From NCBI RefSeq assembly GCF_003334255.1, contig NZ_QOWU01000059.1: DNA of 31,491 bases. One strand, written 5' to 3'. Positions 407 through 10,669 of the stretch are shown piece after piece. The stretch's first letter is position 1. Each line of letters starts with the position of its first letter. The notes below the pieces were generated by a model that saw only the letters and a list, made by a program, of their open reading frames with translations, was not told the origin of the DNA and did no database searches. Source of the DNA: Escherichia coli (lineage in GTDB: Bacteria > Pseudomonadota > Gammaproteobacteria > Enterobacterales > Enterobacteriaceae). A program made the position numbers and the translations under genes.

Positions 407-3400
407 ATGGGAAAAGGTGGCGGTAAGGCACACACGCCTCGTGAGGCGAAGGATAATCTCAAATCCACGCAGATGATGAGCGTGATTGATGCGATTGGTG
501 AGGGACCGATAGAAGGTCCGGTGAAGGGACTGCAGAGTATCCTGGTGAACAAAACCCCGCTGACGGACACGGACGGTAATCCCGTGATACACGGTGTGAC
601 GGCGGTCTGGCGCGCCGGGGAGCAGGAGCAGACACCACCGGAAGGCTTTGAGTCCTCCGGTGCTGAAACCGGACTGGGCGTGGAAGTGACGAAGGCAAAA
701 CCGGTGACGCGCACCATTACGTCCGCGAACATTGACCGCCTGCGGGTTACCTTCGGGGTGCAGTCACTGGTGCAGACCACGTCAAAGGGTGACCGAAACC
801 CGACATCCGTCCGCCTGCTGATTCAGTTACAGCGTAACGGTAACTGGGTGACAGAAAAGGATGTCACCATTAACGGCAAGACCACCTCGCAGTTTCTGGC
901 GTCGGTGATTCTGGATAATCTGCCTCCCCGTCCTTTTAACATCCGGATGGTCCGGGAGACAGCGGACAGCACCACGGACCAGCTGCAGAATAAGACGCTG
1001 TGGTCGTCATACACCGAAATCATCGATGTGAAACAGTGCTACCCGAACACGGCCATTGTGGGGCTGCAGGTGGATGCGGAGCAGTTCGGCGGCCAGCAGA
1101 TGACGGTGAACTACCATATCCGCGGTCGCATCATCCAGGTGCCGTCAAACTATGACCCGGAAAAACGCACGTACAGTGGTATCTGGGACGGCAGTCTGAA
1201 ACCGGCATACAGCAACAACCCGGCCTGGTGCCTGTGGGACATGCTGACTCACCCGCGCTACGGCATGGGAAAACGTCTGGGGGCGGCGGATGTGGACAAG
1301 TGGGCGCTGTATGCCATCGGGCAGTACTGCGACCAGACGGTCCCGGATGGTTTCGGGGGGACCGAGCCGCGGATGACCTTTAATGCGTACCTGGCACAAC
1401 AGCGTAAGGCGTGGGACGTTCTCAGTGATTTCTGCTCTGCGATGCGCTGTATGCCGGTATGGAACGGTCAGACGCTGACGTTCGTTCAGGACCGCCCGTC
1501 GGATGTGGTGTGGCCGTACACCAGCAGCGATGTGGTGGTGGATGATAACGGCGTGGGGTTCCGCTACAGCTTCAGTGCCCTGAAGGACCGGCACACGGCG
1601 GTGGAGGTGAATTACACCGACCCGCAGAACGGCTGGCAGACCTCCACGGAACTGGTGGAAGACCCGGAAGCCATACTGCGCTACGGACGCAACCTGCTGA
1701 AGATGGACGCGTTCGGCTGTACCAGCCGCGGTCAGGCCCACCGTGCCGGGCTGTGGGTGATAAAGACCGAACTGCTGGAAACGCAGACGGTGGATTTCAC
1801 GCTCGGGTCACAGGGGCTGCGTCACACACCCGGTGACATCATTGAAATCTGTGATAACGACTATGCCGGGACCATGACCGGCGGACGTGTCCTGTCCATC
1901 GATGCCGCCAGCCGTACCCTGACGCTGGACCGGGAGGTGACACTGCCGGAGACCGGCACGGCCACTGTTAATCTGATTAACGGCAGCGGTAAGCCGGCGA
2001 GCGTGGCCATCACCGCACACCCCGCGCCTGACCGGATACAGGTCAGCACCCTGCCGGATGGTGTGGAGACATACGGTGTGTGGGGACTCTCCCTGCCGTC
2101 ACTGCGTCGTCGCCTGTTCCGCTGTGTCTCCATCCGGGAAAACACGGACGGCACCTTTGCCATCACGGCGGTGCAGCACGTACCTGAAAAAGAAGCCATC
2201 GTGGATAACGGGGCCCGCTTTGAGCCGCAGTCAGGCACCCTGAACAGCGTTATCCCACCGGCAGTGCAGCACCTGACGGTGGAGGTGAGTGCAGCTGACG
2301 GTCAGTATCTGGCACAGGCGAAATGGGACACGCCGCGGGTGGTGAAGGGTGTGCGCTTCAGTCTGCGTCTGACCAGCGGAAGCGGAGAAGACAGCCGTCT
2401 GGTGAGCACCGCCAGCACCGCAGACACGGAGCACCGTTTCAGCGGCCTGCCACTGGGGGAATACACCCTGACGGTCAGGGCGATTAACAGTTATGGCCAG
2501 CAGGGCGAACCGGCCACCACCACGTTCAGGATTAACGCACCTGCAAAACCCGCCACCATTGAGCTGACGCCGGGGTATTTTCAGATAACGGCGGTCCCGC
2601 GTCTTGCGGTGTATGACCCGACGGTACAGTTTGAATTCTGGTTCTCAGAAAAACGCATCACGAACACAGCACAGGTGGAAAAATCTGCCCGTTATCTGGG
2701 GACCGGCAGTCAGTGGACTGTCCATGGGAGCCGGATTAAGCCGGGGACGGATTTCTGGTTTTACGTGCGAAGCGTCAACCTGGTGGGAAAATCTGCTTTT
2801 GTGGAAGCCAGCGGGCAGCCCAGCAATGATGGTGAAGGGTATCTGGAAATTTTCCGGGGGCTGATAGATGAGACGCTTCTGGGCCAGGCACTGAAAGAGC
2901 GCATTGATGCTTCAGCGCTGCGTACGGAGGTCACGCAACTGGAAGAAGACATCCGTCAGCGGATGGACACGGATATCGCAGAAGTGACCCGGAAAATCGG
3001 GAAGGCGGAAAACAGCCTCACGCAGCTGGTTGCGAAAAAGAATGAGGACCAGACACTGGCCATCGCGCAGGTGAGCCAGAAAGTGGACCGGGTGAGCAGT
3101 GAAATCTCACAGACTGTCAGCCAGGGGCAGTCAGAAAACGCCCGACAGATAGCACAGGTCCGCCAGTACGTGGATAAAAAAGGGAGTGAAATTACCTCGA
3201 CCACGGATAAAAAGCTGGGTGACCAGGCCGTGACCATACAGCAAATCCAGCGGGTTCAGTCAGACACGCGCAATGAGCTGAATGCCATGTATATGCTGAA
3301 GGTGCAGAAAACAAAAAACGGTATTCCCTATGTGGCCGGGATTGGCGCGGGGATTGAGGATGTTGATGGTCAGACGCTGAGCAGTATTCTGCTGCAGGCG

Positions 3401-4099
3401 GACCGTATCGCGATGATTACCCCGGAGAACGGCAACACCACGCCGCTGTTTGTGGCGCAGGGGAATCAGCTGTTCATGAACGACGTGTTCCTGAAGCGAC
3501 TGTTTGCGGTGAGCATCACGTCATCCGGCAATCCTCCTACGTTTTCCCTGACGCCGGATGGCAGGCTGACAGCCCGCAATGCGGATATCAGTGGAGCCAT
3601 CACGGCGAATACCGGCACGCTCAATAATGTCACCATTAACGAGAACTGTGTCATCAGAGGGAAACTGTCTGCAAACCAGATTGAAGGCGATCTCGTTAAA
3701 ACAGTGGGTAAGGCTTTCCCCCGTGACTCCCGTGCACCGGAGCGTTGGCCATCAGGAACCATTACCGTCAGGGTTTATGACGATCAGCCGTTTAACCGGC
3801 AGATTGTTATTCCGGCGGTGGCTTTCAGCGGTGCCAGACATGAGCGGGAGAACAGCGATACTTATTCGTCATGCCGCCTGATAGTACGGAAAAACGGTGC
3901 TGAAATTTATAACCGTACCGCGCTGGATAATACGCTGATTTACAGTGGTGTTATTGATATGCCTGCTGGTCGCGGCCACATGACGCTGGAGTTTTCTGTA
4001 TCAGCATGGTGGGTAAATGGCTGGTATCCCACAGCAAGTATCAGCGATTTGCTGGTTGTTGTGATGAAGAAAGCCACTGCAGGCATCACGATTAGCTGA
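407..4099 (+). CDS. J: Phage host specificity protein J (tail tip / central tail fiber), 1230 aa
   Basis: N-terminus [22 protein letters not shown]… and long collinear stretches (…[22 protein letters not shown]…, …[24 protein letters not shown]…, …[18 protein letters not shown]…) match lambda gpJ as I recall it. AGGGGAAGG Shine-Dalgarno lies ahead of the ATG at 407. About 100 aa longer than lambda J, with extra coiled-coil-like sequence near aa 820-950. Confidence 0.93.
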
Positions 4100-4166: not shown

Positions 4167-4766
4167 ATGCGTAAAGTTTGTGCAGCCATTTTGTCCGCAG
4201 CCATCTGTCTGTCCGTATCCGGTGCGCCTGCATGGGCGTCTGAACATCAGTCCACACTGAGCGCGGGGTATCTTCATGCCCGTACGAACGCTCCCGGCAG
4301 CGATAATCTGAACGGGATTAACGTGAAATACCGTTATGAGTTTACGGACGCGCTGGGGCTGATTACGTCCTTCAGTTATGCCAATGCTGAGGATGAGCAA
4401 AAAACGCACTACAGCGATACCCGCTGGCATGAAGATTCCGTGCGTAACCGCTGGTTCAGCGTGATGGCGGGGCCGTCTGTACGCGTGAATGAATGGTTCA
4501 GCGCGTATGCGATGGTGGGTGTGGCTTACAGCCGTGTGTCGACTTTCTCCGGGGATTATCTCCGCGTAACTGACAACAAGGGGAAAACGCACGATGTGCT
4601 GACCGGAAGTGATGACGGTCGCCACAGCAACACGTCTCTGGCGTGGGGGGCTGGCGTGCAGTTTAACCCGACCGAATCCGTAACCATTGACCTTGCTTAT
4701 GAAGGTTCCGGTAGTGGCGACTGGCGAACGGATGCATTTATTGTTGGTATCGGATACCGTTTCTGA
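4167..4766 (+). CDS. lom: Lom/Ail-family outer membrane beta-barrel protein (lambda lom homolog), 199 aa
   Basis: Signal peptide MRKVCAAILSAAICLSVSGAPAWA, C-terminal aromatic residue (…GIGYRF), GAGAGG Shine-Dalgarno, and the J-lom-stf order typical of lambdoid phages. Sequence resembles lambda Lom. Confidence 0.88.
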   Translation: MRKVCAAILSAAICLSVSGAPAWASEHQSTLSAGYLHARTNAPGSDNLNGINVKYRYEFTDALGLITSFSYANAEDEQKTHYSDTRWHEDSVRNRWFSVMAGPSVRVNEWFSAYAMVGVAYSRVSTFSGDYLRVTDNKGKTHDVLTGSDDGRHSNTSLAWGAGVQFNPTESVTIDLAYEGSGSGDWRTDAFIVGIGYRF

Positions 4767-4917: not shown

Positions 4918-7900
4918 ATGACAGTAAAAATTTCTGGCGTGCTTAAAGATGGCACAGGAAAACCAGTACAGAACTGCACCATTGTGCTGAAGGCCAGACG
5001 AACCAGCAGCACGGTGGTGGTGAACACGGTGGCCTCTGAAAATCCGGATGAAGCCGGACGTTACAGCATGGATGTTGAGCATGGCCAGTACAGCGTCACC
5101 CTGCTGGTTGAAGGTTTTCCGCCTTCACATGCCGGGACCATTACCGTCTATGAAGGTTCCAGACCAGGTACGCTGAATGATTTTCTCGGTGCCATGACGG
5201 AGGATGATGTCCGACCGGAGGCACTGCGCCGCTTTGAGCAGATGGTGGAAGAGGTGTCACGTAACGCCTCCGCGGTTGCACAGAATACGGCAGCCGCGAA
5301 AAAATCAGCCAGCGATGCCAGTGCATCAGCCAGCGAGGCGGCAACTCATGCAACCGATGCTGCAGCCTCAGCACGTGCCGCCAGCACGTCAGCCGGACAG
5401 GCCGCGTCGTCGGCTCAGTCAGCGTCTTCCAGCGCAGGAACGGCATCGACAAAGGCCCGTGAAGCAGCAAAAAGTGCTGCTGCTGCAGAGTCATCAAAAA
5501 GCGCGGCAGCTACCAGCGCCAGTGCCGCGAAAACGTCAGAAACGAATGCCGCAGCATCACAAAAATCGGCAGCCACTTCTGCATCCACAGCGACCACGAA
5601 GGCGTCAGAAGCTGCCACCTCGGCACGGGGTGCGGCGGCCTCAAAAGAGGCAGCGAAATCTTCAGAAACGAATGCATCATCAAGTGCCAGTAGTGCAGCT
5701 TCCTCGGCAACGGCGGCAGGAAATTCCGCGAAGGCGGCAAAAACGTCCGAGACGAACGCTAAGTCTTCTGAAACAGCAGCGGGACAGAGCGCCTCAGCTG
5801 CGGCAGGTTCAAAAACAGCGGCTGCATTATCTGCCAGTGCCGCGTCAACAAGTGCCGGGCAGGCCTCAGCCAGTGCCACCGCCGCCGGAAAATCGGCAGA
5901 AAGCGCCGCATCATCCGCTTCAACAGCCACAACGAAAGCTGGCAAAGCCACTGAGCAAGCCACTGCAGCAGCGAGGTCTGCTTCTGCAGCAAAAACCTCT
6001 GAAACAAATGCAAAGACTTCAGCAGACAATGCTGCTTCCTCTAAGGCGGCAGCCGCATCGTCAGCCAGTTCAGCGGCGTCATCGGCATCATCTGCGTCTG
6101 CTTCAAAAGATGAGGCGACCAGACAAGCGTCAGCAGCGAAAGGTAGTGCCACGACAGCAACAACGAAAGCATCAGAGGCGGCAGGCAGTGCGACGGCTGC
6201 ATCTCAGAGCAAAGTTGCTGCTGAATCCGCGGCAACGCGCGCCGAGACAGCAGCAAAACGGGCAGAGGATATTGCATCCGCCGTGGCGCTGGAGGATGCG
6301 AGCACGACGAAAAAGGGGATAGTACAGCTCAGCAGTGCAACAAACAGCACCAGTGAAAAGCTGGCGGCAACGCCAAAGGCAGTTAAAACTGTTAAAGATA
6401 GTTCAGTTCAAAAAACTGGCGACACAATGGGAGGGCAGTTAAAAATCAGCACGATAAATGCTCTTCGAATATTCAACCAAGCCTTTGGCCTTATTTTTAG
6501 GCGTTCCGAAGATCATCTTCATCTTATTCCGACTAATGAAGGGGAGGGGGAAAATGGAGACATCGGTTCATTAAGACCATTCTCTATAAACTTAAGATCA
6601 GGGTTGGTGTCCATCGGTAATGGACTAAAAGTTGGTGGTAGTGTTACTGGTAATTTGACCGGAAACGCAGATACTGCGACCAAGATCAAGACAGCACGTA
6701 AGATTGGGGGCGTGGCATTTGATGGATCGGCAGATATCAACTTGCCTGGAGTCAACGCTACCGGTAATCAAAACACTACAGGTAATGCTGCGACCGCCAC
6801 GAAACTTCAGGCAGCCAGAACGATTAACGGTGTGTCATTTGATGGTAGTGCAAATATCACATTGACCCCTTCAAATATTGGGGCATTGGCATTAACTGGA
6901 GGGACTCTTTCAGGTGGTTTAACTGCTGCTGGTGAGGTTATTTCAAGGTCAGCAAATGGTCTGCGTATTGCCTATGGCAACTATGGATTCTTTATCCGAA
7001 ATGATGGATCAAACACATATTTTATGTTGACAGATTCGGGTAACAGTCTTGGTACGCACAATAGCTTAAGGCCGTTTATAATTAGTAACCATACTGGCAA
7101 TGTTACAATTGCAACTAAATTAAACGCGAGTGGTGGTATCACTGGATCTTTATCGGGTAATGCAAGCACAGCAACCAAATTGCAAACTGCAAGGACAATT
7201 AACGGCGTAAAATTTGACGGCTCGGCAAATATTGAAGCGTTTCCGCCAGGTGTTCCGCTGCCGTGGCCATCAGATACACCACCTGCAGGTTATGCGATCA
7301 TGCAGGGGCAGACGTTTGATAAGGCAGCATATCCGAAACTGGCTATTGCCTATCCTTCAGGTGTTATTCCAGATATGCGCGGCTGGACAATCAAGGGCAA
7401 ACCCGCCAGTGGCCGGGCCGTATTGTCTCAGGAACAGGACGGCATAAAATCGCACACCCACAGCGCCAGCGCATCCAGTACGGATTTGGGGACGAAAACC
7501 ACATCGTCGTTTGATTACGGCACTAAATCCACGAATAACACCGGGGCGCATACGCACAGTCTGAGTGGCTCTACGGGGTCTGCCGGTGTTCATACTCATG
7601 GTAATGGTATTCGTTGGCCAGGAGGCGGCGGTTCTGCGTTAGCATTTTATGATGGCGGTGGGTTCACTTATGTCCAGAATTCACAGTATCAAGTAAGCCC
7701 GGAGACTTCTTCCTATAGATCGTATTATCAACGTATTCAGACACAGTCAGCAGGTGCTCATACCCACTCGCTGTCTGGTACTGCAGCAAGTTCTGGCGCA
7801 CATGCACATACTGTAGGTATTGGTGCGCATACGCACTCCGTTGCGATTGGTTCACATGGACACACCATCACCGTTAACGCTGCGGGTAACGCGGAAAACA

Positions 7901-7944
7901 CCGTCAAAAACATCGCATTTAACTATATTGTGAGGCTTGCATAA
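4918..7944 (+). CDS. stf: Side tail fiber protein (Stf-like), 1008 aa, mosaic
   Basis: N-terminus [22 protein letters not shown]… and C-terminus …[31 protein letters not shown] match lambda Stf as recalled. Contains an Ala/Ser/Thr-rich low-complexity segment, three copies of a G-N-x-x-TATK(L/I)-x-(T/A)AR-x-I-(N/G)GV-x-FDGSA(N/D)I phage tail-fiber repeat (about nt 6650-7240), and His-rich HTHS/HAHT repeats near the C-terminus. Confidence 0.9.
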
Positions 7945-8528
7945 TGGCATTCAGAATGAGTGAACAAGCACGGACCATAAAAATTTATAATCTGCTGGCC
8001 GGAACTAATGAATTTATTGGTGAAGGTGACGCATATATTCCGCCTCATACAGGTCTGCCAGCAAACAGTACCGATATTGCACCACCAGATATTCCTGCTG
8101 GCTTTGTGGCTGTTTTCAACAGTGATGAGGCATCGTGGCATCTCGTTGAAGACCATCGGGGGAAAACGGTTTATGACGTAGCGTCAGGGGACGAGTTATT
8201 TATTTCTGAACTCGGTCCGTTACCGGAAAATGTTACCTGGTTATCGCCGGAAGGGGAGTTTCAGAAGTGGAACGGCACAGCCTGGGTGAAGGATACGGAA
8301 GCAGAAAAACTGTTCCGGATCCGGGAGGCGGAAGAAACAAAAAACAACCTGATGCAGGTAGCCAGTGAGCATATTGCGCCGCTTCAGGATGCTGCAGATC
8401 TGGAAATTGCAACGGAGAAAGAAACCTCATTGCTGGAAGCCTGGAAAAAGTATCGGGTGTTGCTGAACCGTGTTGATACATCAACTGCACCTGATATTGA
8501 GTGGCCTACGAACCCTGTCAGGGAGTAA
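7944..8528 (+). CDS. tfa: Tail fiber assembly protein (Tfa), 194 aa
   Basis: [34 protein letters not shown]… is near-identical to lambda Tfa as recalled. The start overlaps the stf stop in a TAATG arrangement (translational coupling). Confidence 0.92.
8367..8528 (+). repeat. Direct repeat copy A (3' end of tfa), ~160 bp
   Basis: Nucleotide alignment by eye: gagcatattgcgccgcttcaggatgctgcagatctggaaattgcaacgg… versus gagtatattgcgccactgcaggatgctgtagatctggaaatcgcaacgg… at 9416; roughly 85-90% identity, same orientation. Confidence 0.75.
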
Positions 8529-8542
8529 TCATTGGGATTATG

Positions 8543-8590
8543 CCGCAGCACGTCTTAAGCAAGAACGTGCTGCGGTTGGATGCTATTTTT
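8543..8590. terminator. Hairpin plus T-run between convergent tfa (+) and methyltransferase (-); likely bidirectional terminator
   Basis: Perfect 11-bp stem CCGCAGCACGT (8543-8553) / ACGTGCTGCGG (8565-8575), 11-nt loop, then …tgctatttttt to 8590. Confidence 0.5.
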
Positions 8591-9251
8591 TCCCTGAAGC
8601 GGAAAACATTACTACAGTACCTTGAACCTTGGTTTTAACATTCTCGAAATGCTCTGAGAGTATATGTGTTAAGCCTTCTTCGGAATCTTTTGTGTTTGAA
8701 AAGATGCCTTTCTGATTGTAAATGCGCATCAGTTTTTGACCGAAGCTATTGTGCACAACTCCATCGCCAAGAATTGTGGCTCCGTATAGAGTTCCATCGT
8801 CAGTTAAGGCCTGCGCCGCATTGCGTATTACACAGCTTTTTGTAGATATATTTCCAGGCAGGCAGTGAAGAAGGTAAAACATGGAAATGGAATCAAATTG
8901 ACCATGTAACGCCGCGGGATAAGGTTCAAAAACATCATGGCTAATTTTATGTTTAATTTTTGATTCCCCAGCCCTTGTAGATGCCGCGTTCAGGCTAGCT
9001 TCGTTCAAATCCATTAAAGATATCAGACTACTCTCAGGTACGTGAGTAAGGTAAAACCCAGTTCCAACACCAATATCCAGATGGTTGTTACCTACATGTT
9101 CCAGAAAGTGTGGAAGAAGGTGTTCCTTTGTAGGACATCCCCATGCAAGCCGATTTGATACTCCCAAAACCCACCAGTCATAAAGCTTTAGGGTAAGTGG
9201 TGTGTAAATTTTAGCCCCATCATCTGTGTTTTTTTTCATTGATTTCACCAT
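8583..9251 (-). CDS. Class I SAM-dependent methyltransferase (prophage cargo gene), 222 aa from the first ATG
   Basis: Glycine-rich SAM-binding motif I (…HLDIGVGTGFYL…) followed by an acidic residue at the end of the next beta-strand (…ISLMDLNE…). Opposite strand to the tail genes and visibly more AT-rich than its flanks. The start is ambiguous: ATG at 9249-9251 (MVKS…) or ATG at 9236-9238 (MKKNT…, preceded by GGTGA at SD spacing). Confidence 0.75.
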   Translation of the reverse strand: MVKSMKKNTDDGAKIYTPLTLKLYDWWVLGVSNRLAWGCPTKEHLLPHFLEHVGNNHLDIGVGTGFYLTHVPESSLISLMDLNEASLNAASTRAGESKIKHKISHDVFEPYPAALHGQFDSISMFYLLHCLPGNISTKSCVIRNAAQALTDDGTLYGATILGDGVVHNSFGQKLMRIYNQKGIFSNTKDSEEGLTHILSEHFENVKTKVQGTVVMFSASGKK

Positions 9252-9307
9252 GTTATAGTTTTATTTGTGAATTAAATCAATTATGGCGATGAATTACAAG
9301 GGGTTAA

Positions 9308-9574
9308 ATGCTGCCGCAGCATAGCGATATTGAAATAGCCTGGTATGCTTCGATACAGCAGGAGCCGAATGACTGGAAGACCGTCACCACACAGTTCCAC
9401 ATCCAGGAATTCAGTGAGTATATTGCGCCACTGCAGGATGCTGTAGATCTGGAAATCGCAACGGCGGAAGAAAGATCGTTGCTGGAGGCATGGAATAAAT
9501 ATCGGGTATTGTTGAATCGTGTTGATACATCAACTGCACCTGATATTGAGTGGCCGACTTCACCTGCAGAGTAA
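9308..9574 (+). pseudogene. Partial second copy of tfa (C-terminal domain only, 88-aa ORF)
   Basis: C-terminal ~50 aa ([47 protein letters not shown]…) parallel the C-terminus of the Tfa at 7944-8528. The N-terminal part has no Tfa N-domain, so it is probably a remnant. Confidence 0.6.
9416..9574 (+). repeat. Direct repeat copy B (3' end of the tfa fragment)
   Basis: See copy A. The two copies bracket the methyltransferase gene. Confidence 0.75.
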
Positions 9575-9610
9575 TCAACGGCGCAGGGATGATATTTTGT
9601 GCTTGAAGTG

Positions 9611-9640
9611 CCTCCCCGACCATTCAGATAGTCGGGGAGG
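9611..9640. other. Perfect 10-bp stem hairpin (CCTCCCCGAC-n10-GTCGGGGAGG) near the prophage/chromosome junction
   Basis: Read directly. No clean U-tract on either side, so its role (terminator, att-associated structure) is open. Confidence 0.35.
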
Positions 9641-9805
9641 GGTATTGGGATTATACGCAATCAGTTTTAGTTAAAGACCGAAGCTCTCGAAAAATCTTTC
9701 TCCAAAACCAGAATGGAATTGATTGATTTTGATAGGATCTATAACGCCGTTACCTTAAACGGCAAAACCACTCAAAAACAAACTTAATGCATTGAATATA
9801 AAGGA

Positions 9806-10669
9806 TTAATCATCTAATTCGCTCACCTTCTTATTCAGCAGACGAGAAGCGCGCCAGTAAACCAGCAACATCAGGCCCATTACGATAGTCAGCGTAATGC
9901 TGGTGGCTGCACCAAATGGCCAGTCACGAATATTGAGGAACTGTACCTTGATGACGTTACCGATCAGCAGGTTTTTCGCACCGCCCATCAGGTCGGACAC
10001 ATAGAACAGGCCCATCGCTGGCAGCATCACCAGCAAACATCCGGCAATAATTCCCGGCATCGTCAGTGGAATAATGATACGGATAAAAGTCTGTAACTTG
10101 CTGGCACCGAGATCGCGCGCCGCCTCAAGCAACGGCTTATCCAGTTTTTCGATACTGGAGTACAGCGGCATCACCATAAACGGTAGCAGAATGTAAACCA
10201 GACCGATAATCACCGCACTGGGCGTGAACATGATACGAATTGGTGTGTCGATAACGCCCAGCCAGAGCAAAAACTCGTTGAGATAGCCTTTGGTGCTGAG
10301 GAAAATTTTCAGCCCGTAGATGCGAATCAGTGAGTTGGTCCAGAAGGGAACAATCAGCAGAAACAGCAGCAGCGGACGCACCTTGTGTGGCAGCTTCGCC
10401 AGAAACCAGGCAAACGGGTAGCCCAGCACCAGGCAGGCGAGGGTGGCGATCAGCGCCATATTCAGCGAGTGCAATAGCACTTCAAAATAGAGCGGATCGA
10501 GCAGACGCGTGTAGTTATCCAGCGTAAAGACCATTTTGACGAAACTGGCGTCGTCGCGGGTCAAAAAGCTGGTGCCAATGATCATCAGGTTGGGCAGAAA
10601 GACAAACAACACAAGCCAACCGACAATAGTGACAATCACTACATTCTGGAACTTACTTGTGTTCTTCAT
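9806..10669 (-). CDS. potB: Spermidine/putrescine ABC transporter permease PotB
   Basis: Multi-pass permease sequence (…[20 protein letters not shown]…[21 protein letters not shown]…) directly downstream of, and overlapping, potA as in potABCD. The 287-aa ORF from the first ATG may exceed the true length; the real start could be an internal GTG/ATG. Confidence 0.85.

Follow-up and report, generated by a model that had tools for sequence, protein, structure and literature searches.

A ybcY–tfaX cassette between duplicated tfa ends in a lambda-like prophage of Escherichia coli

ybcY, a gene of the DLP12 prophage of Escherichia coli K-12 (locus b0562), lies in a region annotated, in this order, as a pseudogene for tail fibre assembly, a frameshifted class I methyltransferase gene, a fragment of a tail fibre assembly gene, appY, and ompT. 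The spacer between ybcY and tfaX of K-12 is bound by RpoD holoenzyme in vitro, harbors a promoter of the form TTGATT-17-TATAAC, and contains an H-NS site (PMC3946193). Searches of the literature yielded only passing mentions of ybcY and nothing relevant on tfaX and tfaD or on morons with methyltransferases. A K-12 ybcY mutant was unremarkable in the single screen that these searches located, the K-12 copy being frameshifted anyway; the frameshift in the standard laboratory strain may itself explain the lack of study.

Accessory genes of this kind are described as morons, a concept of Juhala, Hendrix and colleagues. The tail fibre genes are also sites of exchange: lambda captured DNA of the Rac and Qin prophages through stf–tfa homology, mainly via Red-beta, and the relaxed recombination between lambda and defective prophages in this region is Red-beta/RecA-dependent and tolerates 88–96% identity (PMC3945230). 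Among enzymes, DovB (nearly identical to VerB), AurB, CtvB, and AstB of fungi O-methylate an alpha-pyrone hydroxyl (PMC12312803).

The cassette and its place in the prophage

The window, a stretch of 31,491 nucleotides of E. coli DNA, contains a lambda-like prophage integrated at the potB/potC junction with the order J, lom, stf, tfa, cassette, attR. J, Lom, and Stf are encoded upstream of the cassette, and the late operon ends with a plus-strand tfa that is ~93% identical to lambda tfa at the nucleotide level. The features of the region are the following:

7944..8528, plus strand: intact tfa, which encodes a lambda-type tail fibre assembly protein of 194 aa (phrog_105, 2e-100)
8352..8531, plus strand: direct repeat copy 1, the tfa 3′ end, which encodes the conserved Tfa C-terminal domain (repeat search, alignment)
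8469..8506, plus strand: 38-bp core of copy 1, identical to 9518–9555 and the longest identical run (alignment)
8542..8576, no strand: stable 15-bp hairpin at the point where tfa and the methyltransferase gene converge (folding)
8583..9251, minus strand: ORF of 222 aa for a ybcY-type class I SAM-dependent methyltransferase (ORF translation, profiles, predicted structure)
9252..9307, no strand: AT-rich divergent promoter spacer (sequence reading, promoter scan, PMC3946193)
9308..9574, plus strand: tfaX-type remnant, an 88-aa ORF (phrog_2341, 2.4e-60)
9401..9577, plus strand: direct repeat copy 2 (repeat search, alignment)
9578..9823, no strand: prophage right end and attR region (homology comparison)

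Read from left to right, the cassette begins with the 3′ end of a lambda-type tfa and its hairpin; the methyltransferase gene follows in convergent orientation, and after it come the AT-rich spacer with divergent putative promoters and what remains of a second tfa. The sequence at 9578–9823, which includes a second hairpin at 9611–9640 (found by folding), is confined to the prophage lineage of the potB site and is the same in the allele that lacks the cassette. Homology to the host begins at ~9824, 18 nt into the potB ORF; the host junction lies in the 3′ end of potB. Taken as a whole, the region is best explained as a ybcY–tfaX cassette, i.e., a moron-type accessory module that starts the “b region” of a lambda-like prophage; we give this explanation, including its mechanism, a probability of roughly 0.75.

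An earlier note on this DNA had placed a minus-strand ORF of 222 aa between an intact tfa and a tfa C-terminal fragment, and had pointed to a SAM-binding DIGVGTG motif and to an AT-rich composition. All three elements are located in the window, the motif (motif I) occupies residues 59–65 of the ORF, and the GC content of the gene is 41.1% (GC3 36%) compared to 52% for the prophage part of the window. The spacer is even richer in AT (9252–9307, 26.8% GC).

Judged by sequence, the gene is already catalogued: it is ybcY of the K-12 DLP12 prophage, where the same tfaD–ybcY–tfaX layout occurs, and the match to DLP12 extends over 761 bp at 98.8% nucleotide identity. Phage records name it “putative uncharacterized protein YbcY”, the best match in AFDB is an “AdoMet-dependent methyltransferase DLP12 prophage”, and residues 5–222 align with positions 1–218 of the 218-position profile of PHROG 2132 (phrog_2132, E 4.2e-157). 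The names ybcY, tfaD, and tfaX follow phage annotations and PMC3946193. The ATG at 9251 abuts the −10 element of the ybcY promoter and the homologues are 218 aa long; for these reasons the ATG at 9239, which yields 218 aa, is the likely start.

The gene is found in 3838 of 5426 complete E. coli genomes (~71%), at up to four copies per genome, as well as in the inducible lambdoid phages 2G7b, ev243, and the PhiR series. That it is nevertheless a functionless relic that hitch-hikes in prophages appears unlikely. In favour of a relic, K-12 has a frameshifted copy, truncations are frequent among the clustered proteins, and E. coli and phage copies differ from one another at only 0–4 positions per pair, a divergence too low for dN/dS to gauge selection. 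However, the window, inducible phages, and the dominant protein cluster (222 aa, 6589 sequences) all have an intact ORF; the fold is predicted confidently, and conservation of the family extends from Enterobacterales to fungi, with residues of active-site type being invariant.

On the minus strand, the spacer harbors a putative promoter with TTGATT (9280–9275) as the −35 and TATAAC (9257–9252) as the −10 element, separated by 17 nt. These hexamers are identical to those of the RpoD-bound ybcY promoter of K-12. An alternative minus-strand pair consists of TTAACC (9307–9302) and CATAAT (9285–9280) with 16 nt between them, and a plus-strand pair (ATGGCG, 15 nt, TTAAAT) is directed at tfaX. A promoter consensus scan returned three promoter-like sites compared to a mean of 4.0 in shuffles, i.e., without enrichment. 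Going by the hexamers and by the in vitro binding in K-12, a lysogen would express ybcY from a sigma-70 promoter belonging to the gene itself and not as part of the late operon, and H-NS would probably damp this transcription.

The hairpin at 8542–8576 has fold energies of −32.2 and −29 kcal/mol, with z-scores of −4.0 on the plus and −4.6 on the minus strand. It is homologous to the hairpin 3′ of lambda tfa, and a C:G pair replaces an A:T pair of lambda in the alignment. A simple terminator scan does not call it; it was detected by folding. On the plus strand, a run of six U residues lies 9–10 nt past the hairpin; this T-run (8586–8591) is the reverse complement of the last two lysine codons of the methyltransferase. 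Read along the strand of the methyltransferase, the sequence past the hairpin is CAUAAUCCC, which offers no U-tract, and neither folding nor the scan finds a canonical terminator on this strand. Of the hairpin/T-run terminator that the earlier note had assigned to the methyltransferase gene, the hairpin is therefore real, whereas its assignment as the gene's own terminator does not hold: it is the hairpin of lambda tfa.

Duplicated tfa ends and the proposed movement of the cassette

Both flanks of the cassette are direct repeats of ~85% identity because both encode the conserved Tfa C-terminal domain. The repeat search pairs 8352–8509 with 9401–9558 at 86% identity, and a gapped local alignment of 8352–8531 with 9401–9577 matches 151 of 180 positions (84%) with a score of 212; the maximum among 200 shuffles was 31. 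The earlier note had described repeats of ~160 bp with roughly 85–90% identity at the tfa ends; as measured, the identity is 84–86%, with an identical core of 38 bp.

In the tfaX-type ORF, the C-terminal 55–60 residues represent the universal Tfa C-terminal domain, and the N-terminal ~30 residues are unique. The latter match only other tfaX ORFs, and the idea that tfaX arose by truncation of a known full-length tfa was rejected on these grounds. The ORF is decaying, as its length ranges from 44 to 101 aa across phages and the K-12 version has an internal stop.

Rfam family IS009 (RF02111) matches copy 1 at 8287–8485 with 222 bits, above the gathering threshold of 117, and copy 2 at 9331–9534 with 108.8 bits, just under the threshold. 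Both matches fall within the coding sequence of tfa and have its orientation.

No inverted repeat pairs were detected by the repeat search in 7800–9900, and the ORFs of the window include no recombinase gene between tfa and attR. An invertible tail fibre segment of the Gin/Cin/Pin type was rejected because the repeats are direct, and also for lack of an adjacent recombinase gene. A pin gene is found near the cassette only in the relative PhiR68_2.

The potB site exists in two states. The cassette adjoins potB in 821 genomes, while in 44 genomes a single location covers 80% or more of the sequence predicted for a deletion between the repeats; in each of the best 30 of these 44, all 652 bases are matched in one contiguous piece. 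This survey of related prophages, which the earlier note had proposed, thus yields both filled and empty sites. In O104:H4 2009EL-2071 and E2348/69, stf and tfa are followed by attR and potB, and the methyltransferase is missing. Up to 8468, the tfa at the empty site of O104:H4 2009EL-2071 agrees with copy 1 at 20 of 21 diagnostic sites; from 8507 on, it agrees with copy 2 at all six, such that the switch between the two occurs within the 38-bp core (8469–8506 / 9518–9555). The flanks of filled and empty alleles are 99–100% identical.

The segment that the cassette shares with other prophages also has recurrent ends. Across hundreds of genomes, its right end falls at 9532 or 9554–9558, within the 38-bp core, while the left ends are located at 8363–8431 (copy 1) or 8537–8556 (hairpin). 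In PhiR68_2, pin and ynaE rather than tfa directly precede the cassette; the left repeat is therefore not always adjacent.

The repeats could be incidental and take no part in the gain or loss of the cassette, which would move, if at all, by other means; the second tfa fragment would then be debris of an old rearrangement. The decay of tfaX (variable ORF length, internal stop in K-12), its first 30 residues that are unrelated to tfa, and the different left neighbour in PhiR68_2 would fit such an origin. We regard it as quite improbable, since the empty allele switches from copy 1 to copy 2 inside the 38-bp core between nearly identical flanks, the right homology ends of hundreds of genomes cluster in the same core, and recombination through stf–tfa homology has been demonstrated experimentally (PMC3945230).

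The data are consistent with both gain and loss as the event at the cassette. It is hypothesized that the repeats serve as portable homology for Red-type (phage) or RecA (host) recombination between co-resident tfa genes, which would install, delete, or re-assort the cassette among co-resident phages and prophages. The earlier reading of the gene as cargo, namely a methyltransferase acting on something other than DNA at the tail fibre locus with the tfa 3′ repeats as its recombination boundaries, is supported by the filled and empty alleles and by the ends of homology.

The methyltransferase and its relatives

Pfam class I methyltransferase domains match the ORF, and the AlphaFold model is a single domain with a pLDDT of 90.4. 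The profile matches and the seven-stranded fold both correspond to the class I (Rossmann-fold) type. The HMM and structure comparisons that had been suggested at the outset thus return a conserved class I methyltransferase fold, and the protein is predicted with confidence to be of the small-molecule type. Twelve residues are invariant across homologues with 33–56% identity. Family-invariant residues are Y24, W37, H57, D81, S121, H129, N186, and D189, of which D81 is the invariant acidic residue at the end of strand 2. H129 lies in a conserved LLHCLPG segment at the putative active site. Profile matches in the PDB are JHAMT, UbiG, and ToxA; PDB sequence searches matched only their SAM-binding core.

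Among characterised enzymes, the nearest relatives are the fungal O-methyltransferases VerB/DovB, AurB, and CtvB, which act on alpha-pyrones. VerB (A0A1V6NVX3) was matched in a structure-plus-sequence search (E 8e-26, 36% identity, TM 0.91/0.89); an identity of 36% to VerB does not fix the substrate or the regiochemistry. The only relatives with a demonstrated reaction are those of the VerB/DovB, AurB, CtvB, and AstB group. An Aspergillus homologue is 44% identical (E 2e-59), and other fungal members are 40–47% identical. A Fusarium homologue adjoins genes for an HR-PKS and two P450s, and one relative is a methyltransferase–P450 fusion. A further search for homologues that started from a fungal domain returned no named characterised enzyme.

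The ybcY product would be a soluble SAM-dependent methyltransferase of ~25 kDa that acts on a small molecule. On the basis of its homology to VerB/DovB, AurB, and CtvB, the most likely reaction would be O-methylation of a hydroxyl of the acidic enol or hydroxy-heterocycle type. To our knowledge, E. coli has no obvious alpha-pyrone pathway. No PKS is encoded near the methyltransferase in the window or in the prophage contexts examined, and no conserved partner gene stands beside eight divergent homologues (two from Salmonella and one each from Erwinia, Yersinia, Aeromonas, Enterobacter, E. albertii, and Klebsiella). Because a conserved neighbouring partner is lacking, YbcY probably works by itself on a compound that is either common or exogenous, and its role is probably that of a lysogen fitness factor.

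Other functions are less well accommodated. An enzyme of anti-phage defence or counter-defence, which may methylate a signalling nucleotide or a phage component, would suit a hotspot of accessory genes: the region holds other morons (lom here, ompT and appY in relatives), and the Salmonella and E. albertii homologues are located in island cargo regions. Such a role is nevertheless very unlikely, as PADLOC returns no significant match, partner genes are absent, and many homologues reside in ordinary chromosomal or fungal biosynthetic contexts.

It is more doubtful still that YbcY is a PmtA-like phospholipid N-methyltransferase that converts phosphatidylethanolamine of the lysogen towards phosphatidylcholine and changes its membrane. 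The top Foldseek match in the PDB is a bacterial phosphatidylethanolamine N-methyltransferase of similar length (8ys9, E 1.3e-11), and the N-terminal helix is rich in aromatic residues. In NCBIfam, only sub-threshold matches were obtained (CpaM, RquA, and PmtA, 16–18 bits against cutoffs of 175–390); the weak PmtA match (NF045882) reaches 15.7 bits against a family cutoff of 390, and the profile comparison with 8ys9 gives an E-value of 0.068.

An orphan phage DNA methyltransferase that shields phage DNA from host restriction, to which the frequency of such methylases in phages, the SAM-binding fold, and a weak PADLOC match to the methylase component mad2 (E 0.009) might point, is already largely refuted and has hardly any probability left: the protein is a single domain of just 218 aa that lacks a target-recognition domain, matches no DNA-methylase family of Pfam, NCBIfam, or PADLOC above noise and carries no DPPY/NPPY or PCQ/ENV motif, its structural neighbours are overwhelmingly small-molecule enzymes (0 DNA methylases), and its close homologues are stand-alone chromosomal genes and genes of fungal polyketide clusters. 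Direct reading of the 222-aa translation, in which neither [DNS]PP[YFW] nor PCQ occurs, bears out what had been noted earlier about the DNA-methylase motifs.

Significance and comparison with known systems

As a sequence feature, the cassette is ordinary: the gene is annotated and sits where prophages usually have it, and its mosaic boundaries exemplify a well-established mode of lambdoid evolution. Few accessory genes of E. coli prophages, however, are as widespread as ybcY (~71% of complete genomes), and its unexpectedly close kinship (36–47% identity) to fungal polyketide O-methyltransferases suggests concrete substrate classes. The filled and empty alleles at potB show cleanly, in nature, how cargo is gained or lost via a duplicated coding segment, and may be used as a ready-made assay of phage–prophage recombination.

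A bolder reading, which we consider unlikely, holds that YbcY is a stand-alone detoxifying or signal-quenching O-methyltransferase spread by prophages, and that the duplicated segments for the Tfa C-domain are selected as a portable recombination adaptor. In that event, the target of YbcY would be an exogenous hydroxy-heterocycle made by competing microbes, such as an alpha-pyrone, a 4-hydroxy-quinolone, or a compound of the tetronic/tetramic-acid type, whose acidic hydroxyl the enzyme would cap; YbcY would then represent a phage-borne chemical defence in ~70% of E. coli strains. The adaptor would likewise allow cargo to hop between any phages that encode the Tfa chaperone C-domain. The analogy to detoxifying enzymes of the Rv0560c type is a functional speculation, as the heterocyclic toxin methyltransferase Rv0560c (7bgg) is 15% identical and no closer than dozens of other methyltransferases.

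As a ybcY–tfaX accessory cassette, the region most closely resembles that of K-12 DLP12, where tfa, the hairpin, the opposite-strand methyltransferase, and the tfa C-terminal fragment recur with the same promoter hexamers. In DLP12, however, ybcY is frameshifted, tfaD and tfaX are pseudogenes, and appY and ompT follow. In the window, neither the methyltransferase gene nor the tfa upstream of it is disrupted, and attR at potB comes next after the cassette.

The fungal enzymes VerB/DovB, AurB, CtvB, and AstB are, like YbcY, single-domain proteins of ~220–230 aa and belong to the same family. They are tailoring enzymes encoded beside an HR-PKS, whereas ybcY of prophages has no biosynthetic partners. 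We know of no matching substrate in E. coli.

With the lambda morons lom and bor, ybcY shares its location between conserved phage genes and a deviant GC content, and it may resemble them in a candidate promoter of its own. Like them, it is an accessory gene that is dispensable for lytic growth and is present or absent among close relatives (821 filled, 44 empty). It differs in being bracketed by a duplicated coding segment and in lacking a terminator of its own. In terms of the lambda b region, the gene stands where lambda has ea47, immediately beyond the shared hairpin and in convergent orientation to tfa.

As in mosaic tail fibre exchange, the junctions at the cassette lie in stf–tfa homology. 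In the window, this homology is duplicated in cis around the cargo and, unlike in the exchange described for lambda (PMC3945230), can also delete the cargo within one molecule.

Layout of the prophage end and its cargo

The left third of the window is the late end of a lambda-like prophage, followed by host genes.

407-4099: J, central tail fibre
4167-4766: Lom
4918-7944: Stf, side tail fibre
7944-8528 (+): intact tfa, 194 aa; phrog_105 at 2e-100, about 93% nucleotide identity to lambda tfa
8583-9251 (-): methyltransferase ORF, 222 aa, with DIGVGTG
9308-9574 (+): tfaX-type ORF, 88 aa, with the Tfa C-terminal domain as its final 55-60 residues
9578-9823: prophage right end with attR (9792-9824)
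From 9806: host genes potB (9806-10669), potA, and pepT

The earlier note had described an AT-rich methyltransferase gene between the intact tfa and a second, C-terminal tfa fragment, and this observation is confirmed. The gene has 41.1% GC and the spacer upstream of it (9252-9307) 26.8%, versus 52% for the prophage part. The real start is probably ATG 9239, because the first ATG (9251) lies right against the -10 hexamer, the homologues are 218 aa long, and the PHROG profile alignment begins at residue 5. The spacer between ybcY and tfaX is bound in vitro by RpoD holoenzyme and carries divergent promoters and an H-NS mark; the ybcY promoter is TTGATT-17-TATAAC (PMC3946193). Both hexamers are present in the window on the minus strand, at 9280-9275 and 9257-9252.

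Neither the gene nor its layout is new: both are annotated, the gene being ybcY of the DLP12 prophage. The protein belongs to PHROG 2132 (phrog_2132, "unknown function"), which it matches end to end, phage records name it "putative uncharacterized protein YbcY", and its best AlphaFold-DB neighbor is "AdoMet-dependent methyltransferase DLP12 prophage". In K-12 MG1655, the DNA lies at about 582 kb in DLP12, where RefSeq lists a tail fibre assembly pseudogene, a frameshifted class I SAM-dependent methyltransferase, a second tail fibre assembly fragment, appY, and ompT. Methyltransferase DNA occurs in 3838 of 5426 complete E. coli genomes, with up to four copies per genome. The ybcY-tfaX cassette is also carried by the inducible lambdoid phages 2G7b, ev243, PhiR26_1, PhiR30_1, PhiR49_1, PhiR68_2, Turner, and Kati; in these, ompT, appY, or an alpha/beta hydrolase gene comes next, and then int. 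The literature on ybcY consists of incidental mentions; a K-12 ybcY mutant showed nothing remarkable in a Hha toxicity screen (PMC2408971).

The segment 9578-9823 is assigned to the prophage right end and attR because homology to prophage-free E. coli genomes begins only at about 9824. This puts the junction within the 3′ end of the potB ORF, about 18 nt in, so that the last six potB codons come from the prophage. The prophage parts potAB from potC/potD, which are absent on this side of it. O157:H7 genomes harbor a different element at the potB site, with homology beginning at 9792 (92.7%). Within stf, a long Ala/Ser/Thr-rich low-complexity stretch (about 5200-6300; GC 0.56-0.61, strong AT skew) yields long spurious ORFs of 372 and 245 aa in other frames and on the opposite strand.

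Probable cassette exchange at the tfa repeats

That the two tfa 3′ ends form direct repeats holds: 8352-8509 (copy 1) and 9401-9558 (copy 2) are 86% identical without gaps, and 8352-8531 and 9401-9577 are 84% identical (151/180) with gaps, at an alignment score of 212 versus at most 31 across 200 shuffles. A core of 38 bp is perfectly identical (8469-8506 = 9518-9555). A recent local duplication is rejected as the origin of tfaX, which differs from copy 1 by about 15% and whose first ~30 codons match other tfaX ORFs alone. Rather, tfaX is what is left of another tfa gene, now decaying and moving together with the methyltransferase gene; the 88-aa remnant has a family of its own (phrog_2341), ORF lengths among phages range from 44 to 101 aa, and the K-12 copy has an internal stop. 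The Rfam family IS009 (RF02111), which stands for a predicted E. coli sRNA, scores 222 bits against the tfa 3′ coding region (8287-8485, +) and 108.8 bits against the tfaX copy (9331-9534, +); its gathering threshold is 117 bits. Thus, the "sRNA" family coincides with the conserved Tfa C-domain coding sequence, i.e., the direct repeat.

The earlier note had proposed recombination at the tail-fibre locus and a presence/absence survey, and the survey bears the proposal out. The in-register recombination product (window 8100-8440 joined to 9490-9800) was searched in complete E. coli genomes and found at 80% or more in one place in 44 of them; among the best 30 of these, all 652 bases matched in one contiguous piece, with up to 98.8% identity. 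In O104:H4 2009EL-2071 and EPEC E2348/69, the annotation reads stf, tfa, potB, with the methyltransferase absent, while the methyltransferase 5′ end, tfaX, attR, and potB are contiguous in 821 genomes. At the 27 positions that differ between the copies, the O104:H4 empty-site tfa has the copy-1 base at 20/21 sites up to 8468 and the copy-2 base at 6/6 sites from 8507 on; therefore, the switch lies inside the 38-bp core. Beyond tfa, this allele and the stretch that follows copy 2 are 100% identical. As an independent line, cassette homology to other phages and prophages ends on the right inside the same core, at 9532 (2G7b, PhiR26_1) or 9554-9558 (K-12, PhiR68_2), and on the left at 8363-8431, inside copy 1, or at 8537-8556, at the hairpin 3′ of tfa. 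Cutting and rejoining of these genomes thus takes place in the conserved coding segment for the Tfa C domain.

The cassette is polymorphic for presence and absence with its junctions in the repeats; gain or deletion for a given allele, and the recombinase acting, we infer. There is experimental precedent: lambda takes up Rac and Qin prophage markers via stf-tfa homology of 88-96% identity at ~2e-6, with Red-beta as the chief route (PMC3945230). The window is 98.7% identical to PhiR26_1 over 8250 to 9532, the match already beginning at 7900; the best description is of a left part resembling PhiR26_1 that meets, within the core, a right end specific to the potB-site lineage. The locus is a clean case from nature of cargo gained or lost by way of repeats.

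In PhiR68_2 (L007, 1854-3027), tfa is separated from the hairpin-ybcY-tfaX cassette by two genes, one for a Pin-type serine recombinase and one ynaE-like, so the cassette can sit downstream of an invertase module, as arranged in Rac and Qin, instead of immediately after tfa. The window locus itself does not belong to the invertible tail-fibre systems.

Hairpins at the cassette ends

A hairpin/T-run terminator of the cargo's own, as claimed earlier, does not hold up. The hairpin (8542-8576) does exist, with a stable fold (z about -4 on both strands), and aligns with the lambda hairpin 3′ of tfa, which lies between tfa and the convergent ea47; a C:G pair here is A:T in lambda. The T-run (8586-8591, + strand) is merely the reverse complement of the last two Lys codons of the methyltransferase, on whose strand the hairpin is followed by CAUAAUCCC. 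The hairpin is therefore a tfa/late-operon 3′ structure common to two convergent genes and not a cargo-borne terminator. It is kept in the window prophage, K-12 DLP12, and lambda (L002, about 2140-2180), with at least one compensatory pair change. With convergent genes on either side of it in both phages and no U-tract next to it on either strand, it may serve the late operon as a conserved element that ends transcripts in both directions or stabilizes RNA.

In K-12 (L001, 3962-4099) and many other genomes, RefSeq places a 45-aa "nucleocapsid protein" (WP_071592174.1) across the stop codon of tfa, the hairpin, and the 3′ end of the methyltransferase gene. The window has this ORF too (8501-8638, +); it looks like a spurious call. 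Beyond tfaX, the prophage right end contains a second strong hairpin (9611-9640; CCTCCCCGAC...GTCGGGGAGG, 10-13 bp), which the cassette-free O104:H4 and E2348/69 alleles carry without change.

Family and candidate chemistry of YbcY

The assignment as a methyltransferase stands: YbcY is a class I enzyme that matches generic Pfam domains only (Methyltransf_12 at 6e-9, plus _23, _25, _11, and _31), and its AlphaFold model (38 homologues) is confident, with pLDDT 90.4 and pTM 0.86. NCBIfam and PADLOC give no match above noise. The non-DNA substrate that the earlier note drew from missing motifs is likewise upheld, as the protein has no DNA-methylase motif or profile; DNA methylase is rejected on these grounds, and YbcY is not placed with PmtA either.

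The family comprises 1326 clusters (50% identity) at E below 1e-3 and 197 below 1e-30, from Enterobacterales, Pseudomonas, Aeromonas, Vibrio, actinomycetes, and many fungi. Twelve residues (Y24, W37, H57, G61, G65, D81, S121, H129, G157, N186, D189, and F216) do not vary among homologues of 33-56% identity. Salmonella, Enterobacter, Erwinia, Yersinia, and Klebsiella homologues are stand-alone chromosomal genes without a conserved neighbor; in other Salmonella strains and E. albertii, the homologue lies in island or prophage cargo regions, adjoining int, a ricin-type lectin, OspG-like kinases, or CdtA. Homologues that are 56-65% identical occur as single genes of the chromosome at stable sites outside prophages; in Salmonella enterica (L003/L004) the site is between a PMT_2 glycosyltransferase gene and cybB/ydcF/hrpA, and in Enterobacter hormaechei (L015-L018) it follows the liv transporter operon. 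These stable homologues suggest an enterobacterial housekeeping or accessory gene as the source of the prophage gene.

The strongest lead to a function comes from fungal AlphaFold-DB neighbors of YbcY (TM about 0.9, 36-47% identity), among them "Methyltransferase verB" (36% identity, TM 0.91/0.89) and, from a lichen, a "putative O-methyltransferase". An Aspergillus homologue is 44% identical (E 2e-59), a Fusarium homologue adjoins an HR-PKS and two P450 genes, and one relative is a methyltransferase-P450 fusion. DovB, nearly identical to VerB, O-methylates the alpha-pyrone hydroxyl of the deoxyverrucosidin precursor, as shown through heterologous expression and deletion, and AurB, CtvB, and AstB perform the same O-methylation in their own pathways (PMC12312803). 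YbcY probably acts on a small molecule (probability roughly 0.8). On the basis of the VerB/DovB-type kinship, O-methylation of an acidic enol or hydroxy-heterocycle would be the leading candidate chemistry, a tentative proposal. With no biosynthetic partner gene in the prophage, YbcY would take a common metabolite or an exogenous compound as its substrate. Of note are the very wide distribution of this uncharacterised gene and its unexpected kinship with fungal enzymes.

By homology, YbcY falls among the VerB/AurB-type O-methyltransferases, but the prophage gene lacks their genomic association with a PKS. The cassette behaves like a lambda moron at the position of lambda ea47. Unlike a lambda moron, it is bracketed by duplicated Tfa-domain coding sequence, which probably mediates its exchange.
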